This document shows positions 809 through 1,530 of a stretch of 49,323 nt of DNA, in pieces (the stretch's first letter is position 1; every line of letters starts with the position of its first letter). The position numbers and the translations under genes were made by a program. The notes beneath the pieces were generated by a model. It made no database searches. It was given only the letters and a program-made list of their open reading frames with translations, and was not told the DNA's origin. Origin of the DNA: an uncultured Nioella sp. (GTDB lineage: Bacteria; Pseudomonadota; Alphaproteobacteria; Rhodobacterales; Rhodobacteraceae); NCBI GenBank assembly GCA_963975135.1, contig CAXBGQ010000001.1:1-49323 (forward strand), given 5' to 3'.

Positions 809-1432
809 TTATGCAATTTGTGCTGTCAACCGCGCGGTGATCATACGAAACGGCACCAGCGCCAACAGCGCCAGAGACAGCTTTACAAACCAGTCGGCAA
901 CCGCCAACGACACCCAAAGCGGGGCCTCGGGCCCGGTGCCCAGAAGCGGCAGGATCTCGCCGGCCCAGCCGACATCATTGCCCGGCTCAAGCCAGATCAG
1001 GCTGGCCGAAAAGGCGATGCTGAAAAACAGTGCCGTATCCACCGACGATCCCACCAGCGTCGAGGCCAGCGGTGCCCGCCACCAGGCCCCCGAGCGCATG
1101 CGGTCGAAGATGGCGACGTCCAGCAGTTGCGCGGTCAGAAAGGCCAGCCCCGAGCCGACTGCGATCCTGAGGGTCACCAGCGGGCCAAATTCGCCGATGA
1201 TCTGGGTGCCGATCAGCGAAGAGGCCACGCCAACGACAAAGCCCGCAAACACAACACGGCGCGCGGCGGCAACACCATAGACGCGGTTCATGACATCGGT
1301 GACCAGAAAGGCCACCGGATAGGTGAAGGCCCCCCAGGTCAGCCATTGGCCGAACAGGAACTGAACGAGGATATTGGAGGCGACAACAACGGTCGCCATG
1401 GCAAGAATGCCGGGCAGGTGAATGCGGGTCAT
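809..1432 (-). CDS. yhhQ: Queuosine precursor transporter (YhhQ/VUT family)
   Basis: Hydrophobic 207 aa with ASNILVQ, TWGAFTYPVAFLVTD, RIAVGSGLAFLTAQLLD and S..DT..FFSIAF motifs. Confidence 0.9.
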   Translation of the reverse strand: MTRIHLPGILAMATVVVASNILVQFLFGQWLTWGAFTYPVAFLVTDVMNRVYGVAAARRVVFAGFVVGVASSLIGTQIIGEFGPLVTLRIAVGSGLAFLTAQLLDVAIFDRMRSGAWWRAPLASTLVGSSVDTALFFSIAFSASLIWLEPGNDVGWAGEILPLLGTGPEAPLWVSLAVADWFVKLSLALLALVPFRMITARLTAQIA

Positions 1433-1440
1433 GTATCTGG

Positions 1441-1468
1441 TCCGTTTTTACAAGGTAGCGGAGACTTG
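1441..1468 (-). promoter_or_regulatory. Candidate preQ1 class I riboswitch (translational)
   Basis: CAAG-UCUCCGCUAC-CUUG-UAAAAA-CGGA: 4-bp P1, 10-nt loop U...AC, A-rich linker, and loop UCCG complementary to CGGA, which contains the SD 8 nt before the yhhQ ATG. Confidence 0.65.
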
Positions 1469-1530
1469 GCCCTGCCACAGCGGCAGAGACGCGCGCGCTT
1501 TAGCCTGCAACGCAACCGATTGGCAAGCGC

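Follow-up and report, generated by a model that had tools for sequence, protein, structure and literature searches.

The queuosine-precursor transporter locus

The window considered here, a stretch of 49,323 nucleotides from an uncultured Nioella sp. of the Rhodobacteraceae (contig CAXBGQ010000001.1), carries on its minus strand, at 809..1432, a gene for a 207-aa queuosine-precursor transporter of the Vut_1/COG1738 (YhhQ/QPTR) family. Its product scores 90.2 bits against TIGR00697 (queuosine precursor transporter; cut-off 50.95) and 101 bits against PF02592 (Vut_1). The leader of this gene contains, on the same strand, a predicted 28-nt preQ1-I-like aptamer with the layout of an H-type pseudoknot (1441..1468), which we recognize from the sequence, from the leaders of homologues and with a covariance model, R1. 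In the numbering used below, position 1469 is counted as 1. The first helix, P1, pairs a 5' strand CAAG (1465..1468), in which G1465 is the counterpart of the pocket-floor G5, with a 3' strand CUUG (1454-1451) identified by pairing and in homologues, in which C1454 is the counterpart of C16. The 10-nt loop between them (1455..1464) comprises U1464 (U6), C1463 (C7), A1456 (A14) and the predicted specificity base C1455 (C15), as well as an anti-Shine-Dalgarno stretch (1462-1459) that is complementary to CGGA. The A-rich 6-nt linker L3 (1445..1450), whose A1445 corresponds to the ligand-reading A29, leads into the 3' strand of P2, CGGA (1441..1444), which includes the Shine-Dalgarno GGA and lies 8 nt ahead of the transporter start codon ATG (1432-1430).

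One nucleotide before the aptamer lies P0 (1470..1488, minus strand), a hairpin at what is predicted to be the mRNA's 5' end. A preliminary description of this DNA had proposed the transporter gene, the constituent parts of a pseudoknot in its 5' UTR and a separate hairpin upstream of it; the domain scores bear out the first, every part of the second is found in the minus-strand sequence, and the hairpin is confirmed, at a length of 7 bp formed by 1488-1482 and 1476-1470 with a single G-U. In homologues P0 is variable in sequence, with a mean folding z of -2.8 (z < -2 in 88/122), and only 1-2 nt separate it from P1 in 114 of 119. When the window's own leader plus 30 coding bases is subjected to nested folding, P0 is out-competed in equilibrium; it survives nested folding in 88/120 homologues. 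Further upstream is a predicted housekeeping promoter (1497..1526, minus strand), with its -35 element at 1526-1521 and its -10 element at 1502-1497, so that +1 would fall near 1490. A promoter-like TTG-N19..21-TA arrangement precedes the element in 124/128 leaders (a raw count without a shuffled comparison), and in 106 of these 124 its TA precedes P1 by 26-33 nt. A strict E. coli-type promoter scan of the leader returns no promoter. Just 1/124 of the predicted family promoters has T as the closing base of its -10 hexamer. Alphaproteobacterial promoters often do without this T, and the rarity seen here fits that habit.

Two further features flank the gene. Just downstream of the transporter is an 18-codon GTG-started ORF (738-682; with its surroundings 682-752 of the window, minus strand) preceded by a very long Shine-Dalgarno motif, which recurs in 85/110 related loci. 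By its general description, this ORF fits the rreR of the Rhodobacter/Roseobacter clade presented in passages of PMC5711450. On the other side, two adjoining A/T-rich inverted repeats (1529-1594) lie between the stop codon of an aminotransferase gene and the transporter promoter, and are probably the terminator region of the former. Only 3 weak partial copies of these repeats occur elsewhere in the source genome; hence, they do not constitute an abundant REP.

Conservation and covariation of the leader element

A transporter orthologue is present in 144 of 151 family genomes, which represent one genus each and include the source genome. A parser that demands the G-U, CCG and CGG, no fewer than 3 of 4 P1 pairs and a linker with 3 or more adenines finds the architecture of the element in 128 of the 144 orthologue leaders, one of these matches (L089) being degenerate. 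This lies well above its chance rate of 0.015 per leader-sized stretch of 125 nt (about 1.5%), and the conservation in orthologous leaders on which the preliminary description had made its reading depend is thus upheld. As G5, U6, CCG, C16 and CGG are required by the parser, their invariance is partly a matter of definition. In its strict form the parser matches once in the entire source genome, at the transporter leader. Of 80 named loci, titled almost without exception Rhodobacteraceae, Paracoccaceae or member genera, it also matches 78; this sample partially overlaps the 144 leaders. The element is absent from 16/144 orthologue leaders, and all 16 of these genomes retain queA. Loss of the element along with loss of queA was considered and rejected, queA being retained in 22/22 genomes tested. 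Four leaders (L089, L106, L118 and L281) bear decayed or odd copies, in which the core is lost and the promoter or tail is retained.

The element is linked exclusively to the transporter gene. Model R1, built from 107 cores with the source sequence among them, has its best and only strong match in the source genome at 1440-1469 (E 1.3e-7, for a sequence in its own training set). It matches 124/150 family genomes at E<=0.05, with the top match always at the transporter leader, and yields 2 extra copies, both weak. Since R1 was trained on the same leaders, the informative part of this search is the absence of other copies. Beyond the family, 148 genomes from other alphaproteobacterial families yield no R1 match better than E 0.048 (12 weak matches), and 30 transporter loci from other alphaproteobacteria yield none. 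Likewise, no class-I-like fold precedes 40 other alphaproteobacterial transporter genes (one without an ORF call; the starts of 30 distant ones are rough), and 12 queC loci hold no copy detectable with R1. No count rests on a loose IUPAC pattern, which, in 201 genomes of the order, hit at about the rate of its reversed control. Rfam scans return nothing at the site. Model RF00522 (39-bit gathering cut-off) fails to match it at E values up to 10, also when run over the source genome, and detects none of five longer-stemmed homologues. The search with Rfam PreQ1 models proposed in the preliminary description is thus silent, just as its author had expected of standard models.

P1 covaries. Over the 128 leaders its first pair is C-G in 117, G-C in 7, A-U in 2 and mismatched in 2; the second is A-U in 120, G-U in 6 and G-C in 2; the third is A-U in 120, U-A in 7 and U-G in 1; and the fourth is G-C by definition of the parser. 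Two-sided changes thus occur at 3 of the 4 pairs, and a fifth pair is possible in just 15/128. At the second pair G-U occurs six times and A-C never, as expected for an RNA transcribed from the minus strand. For the counts over aligned cores we used alignment A2, comprising 83 of 108 unique cores, because the MAFFT alignment A1 misplaced the 3' end of cores with long linkers. Left out of A2 are 22 cores whose L3 is not 6 nt long, 2 whose L1 is long, and L089, which is degenerate; with them went every one of the seven GAAG/CUUC variants and the two mismatches at pair 1. In the 83 cores 96.4% of cells pair and 4 pairs vary on both sides. None of 500 shuffles, a control that ignores relatedness, reaches the observed pairing and two-sided changes, and slid registers attain at most 46% pairing on the same cores. 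On a tree of 124 transporter proteins (FastTree on the 207-aa transporter, midpoint root, weak deep branches), a minimum of 6 changes is required at pair 1 and of 5 at pair 3, nearly all of them two-sided.

P2 behaves differently. Its core pairs, CCG with CGG, are complementary in all cores and never vary; hence, they furnish no covariation evidence of their own and are compatible with the helix rather than proof of it. The fourth pair is U-A in 71 of the 128 leaders, C-G in 13, U-G in 4 and A-U in 1, and is broken in 39 (in 24/83 among the aligned cores). Accordingly, the pairing of loop UCCG with CGGA as first drawn stands for three pairs family-wide, but its fourth pair forms in only 88/128 (89 if the one A-U is counted). 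Of the covariation sought in P1 and P2, that in P1 is repeatedly present, whereas P2 varies at the fourth pair alone. Seventeen leaders combine G at position 8 with a G following CGG, and in every one of them the base after that G is C, a correlation that suggests either a bulge at the fourth P2 pair or common descent. The spacer between the arms of P1, read as an inverted repeat, ranges from 8 to 12 nt.

Folding energy at the site is unremarkable (z of 0.11 and 0.94), and we set it aside as a criterion that is uninformative for so small a pseudoknot. Isolated P1 and P2 are marginal, at -0.6 and -2.5 kcal/mol, with median pairing probabilities of 0.02 for P1 and 0.03 for P2 in 120 homologues. 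Such stand-alone weakness is what would be expected if a ligand were needed to close the knot.

Pocket bases, known subtypes and the predicted ligand

Class I preQ1 aptamers, according to passages of PMC11625349, PMC10622847 and PMC6445138, share a pocket with a G-C floor, U in L1, C as the specificity base and an adenine in L3. In the window, the corresponding bases are G5-C16, U6, C7, C9, G11, A14 and C15, then two adenines and the C that is the pairing partner of G11. The G-C floor closing P1, followed by U, is found in the window and in the 128 of 144 leaders for which the parser requires it. C15, directly before the 3' strand of P1, and A14 are not demanded by the parser, and they occur in 126/128 and 119/128 leaders, respectively, with nine homologues bearing C in place of A14. 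One leader, L109 from the queF-positive genome G060, has G at the predicted specificity position. C7 is present in 104/128 and is replaced by U in 10/128. The bases for a C7-G11-C30 ceiling with A14 are present in the sequence, the triple itself being visible only in a structure. The dinucleotide AC precedes the 3' strand of P1 in 117/128, and a loop ending in UC in 0/128. L3 is 6 nt long in 105/128 and ends in AAAA in 124/128, at least 3 A having been asked for by the parser. The exact combination of a 4-bp P1 with a 6-nt L3 is found in 100/128.

Among the described subtypes, the closest is type II, which passages of PMC11625349 define by the AC preceding the 3' strand of P1. The bases reported for its representative from Thermoanaerobacter tengcongensis (Tte; PDB 3q50/6vui; RF00522) in parts of PMC11625349, PMC10622847 and PMC6445138 are G5-C16, U6, C7, G8, C9, A10, G11-C30, A14, C15, A28 and A29. 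The window element shares with it the 10-nt loop and the AC, presents counterparts of G5-C16, U6, C7, C9, G11-C30, A14, C15, A28 and A29 in the same order, and is predicted likewise to control a preQ1 transporter by Shine-Dalgarno sequestration. It differs from Tte in having a P1 of 4 rather than 5 bp, an L3 of 6 rather than 9 nt, and a P2 made up of 3-4 Watson-Crick pairs, against two canonical plus two non-canonical steps in Tte. It also has the additional 5' hairpin P0 and escapes RF00522. More generally, natural class I aptamers have a P1 of 5-6 bp in the passages available from PMC10622847, a length that the 4 bp seen here do not reach, and an L3 of 8-9 nt by the published numbering in the portions consulted. 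A form this short is rendered plausible by the E. coli 30-mer construct, for which the same passages of PMC10622847 give preQ1 binding at 52 nM and a crystal structure with the first of 5 P1 pairs unformed, and by the homologue L147, which has a 5-bp P1 and an 8-nt L3. The preliminary reading of the element as a shortened variant is supported by its 4-bp, covarying P1, its 6-nt L3 and its class I pocket bases in line.

The type III aptamer of E. coli yhhQ (PDB 8fza) controls the same gene family, and has in common with the window element a Watson-Crick P2 that buries the Shine-Dalgarno sequence, a pyrimidine-rich loop and AC at the specificity base. However, type III is gammaproteobacterial, its P1 has three conserved G-C pairs and is followed by UU, its tail is AAGG and its linker is long and variable, whereas the window element has a loop starting UC, two A-U pairs in P1, a CGG tail and a short, near-fixed linker; the UU, the AAGG tail and the three P1 G-C pairs are all lacking. 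With type I (Carnobacterium; two ligands) it shares the class I pocket bases and a C in the 3' tail. Type I in turn requires UC before the 3' strand of P1 and UU after the 5' strand, whereas the family has AC, with UU in 10/128, and neither the UC nor a second ligand site is seen. From the prevalence of AC and the scarcity of UU, one ligand is predicted. As it escapes RF00522 and falls short of the published stem length, we place the element outside the described types, type II-like though it is. We lean towards regarding it as a fourth, Rhodobacteraceae-specific and uncatalogued preQ1-I subtype and the smallest natural aptamer of its kind (28 nt), perhaps retuned (queuine or preQ0 versus preQ1) or aided by the stacked 5' hairpin. 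No description of it was found in the literature searched, including the parts covered of PMC11109978, PMC8632094, PMC6429828, PMC5737381, PMC3766115 and PMC9495176; McCown 2014 or the supplement of Narunsky 2024 could list such RNAs.

The gene complement bears on the ligand. The source genome (97.9% complete, 352 contigs) encodes tgt, queA and queG, and has no match for queC or queF. Its TGT carries a GGLAVG site, which passages of PMC11570991 associate with the E. coli-like enzyme, as opposed to the queuine-type GG[LS][AS]G. Such a gene pattern leaves preQ1 as the sole salvageable precursor according to parts of PMC5372724, which also place yhhQ under preQ1 riboswitches in other bacteria. 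Family-wide, queC occurs in 16/151 genomes and queF in 28/151. This salvage gene set without queC and queF makes preQ1 the likeliest ligand of the element, as predicted from the genome sequences. An L3 longer than 6 nt is found in 8/22 queF-positive genomes versus 14/106 others, a post hoc comparison in which kin are non-independent; this could reflect affinity tuning. Four genomes (G023, G096, G124 and G070), three of the 7 without a transporter and one with a fragmentary match, carry both queC and queF, consistent with synthesis replacing salvage.

The same pseudoknot could also serve another ligand, its trimmed pocket preferring queuine, preQ0 or some other guanine-like base, an option we consider improbable. 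In its favor, the short P1 and L3 of most leaders give a geometry unlike that of all solved aptamers, and the C at position 12 in 110/128 leaders is a base without explanation. Further, a related transporter and TGT of the alphaproteobacterium Bartonella accept both preQ1 and queuine (passages of PMC11570991), and E. coli YhhQ prefers preQ0 (passages of PMC10622847). However, with queF missing from the source and 123/151 family genomes, preQ0 would be useless to most of the family. Moreover, the TGT motif is not of the queuine type and is accompanied by queA and queG, and the core is unchanged in 22 of 24 queF-positive genomes.

Predicted regulation and its implications

Across 982 long ORFs of the source genome, GGA peaks 7-10 nt before the ATG. 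The GGA of the transporter, at 8 nt, lies inside this genome-wide Shine-Dalgarno peak, so the proposal that the element covers the ribosome-binding site holds. In 91/128 leaders the CGG lies 8-9 nt from the start, and no terminator-like site intervenes between the element and the start codon. Taken together with the pocket and the gene set, these sequence-level features make it likely that the element is a shortened preQ1-I riboswitch, a translational OFF switch through which a build-up of preQ1 would halt production of the queuosine-precursor importer. Under this model, the mRNA would begin near 1490 and P0 would fold. With no ligand present, P1 and P2 would be marginal, allowing the ribosome to load and the importer to be made. 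A single preQ1 would then stack on G1465-C1454 and pair with C1455, its minor-groove edge being read by U1464 and A1445. Once bound, it would lock the CCG/CGG helix under a C1463-G1459-C1444 ceiling, with the GGA buried. The outcome would be negative feedback on uptake, in bacteria that are mostly unable to make preQ1. One result is at odds with an ON state that is fully open: in nested folding of the leader plus 30 coding bases, using a program that cannot score pseudoknots, the first three bases of the Shine-Dalgarno strand are modeled as 92-99% paired by other routes without any ligand.

A different output from the same preQ1-bound element, namely mRNA decay or a transcriptional pause as the main effect in place of blocked ribosome loading, appears improbable. 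Passages of PMC11625349 describe pausing and non-canonical outputs for the preQ1 family, and the conserved 5'-terminal P0 suggests a role in RNA stability. These are countered by the lack of a terminator-like site and by the spacing of the CGG, in register with the Shine-Dalgarno peak of the genome, both of which favor the translational switch. Finally, a ligand-independent function of the CAAG/CTTG inverted repeat, as a protein-binding RNA fold or as a DNA operator placed about 22-40 bases past the predicted transcription start, is very unlikely: despite the unremarkable energy of the fold, the G-U pairs without A-C, the variable spacer and the recurrent two-sided changes favor RNA pairing over a fixed operator, the site is single in each genome and restricted to the transporter gene, and the match to a known pocket ahead of the matching transporter would have to be a coincidence.

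If the preferred reading, a preQ1-responsive translational switch, is correct, preQ1 riboswitches would reach into a large alphaproteobacterial family whose transporter gene yields nothing to the standard model, adding examples from more than 100 genera, and the element would be shared by the majority of genera in a dominant marine lineage. It would further mean that the class I pocket functions on a stem of 4 bp and a linker of 6 nt, under the size of the solved natural aptamers, and would bear on the number of tiny riboswitches overlooked by current searches. The element would also offer a ready reporter for preQ1 measurement, and the 28-mer can be synthesized and tested at low cost. With queC and queF missing in most genomes of the family, it would mark preQ1 as a cross-fed micronutrient for these bacteria.
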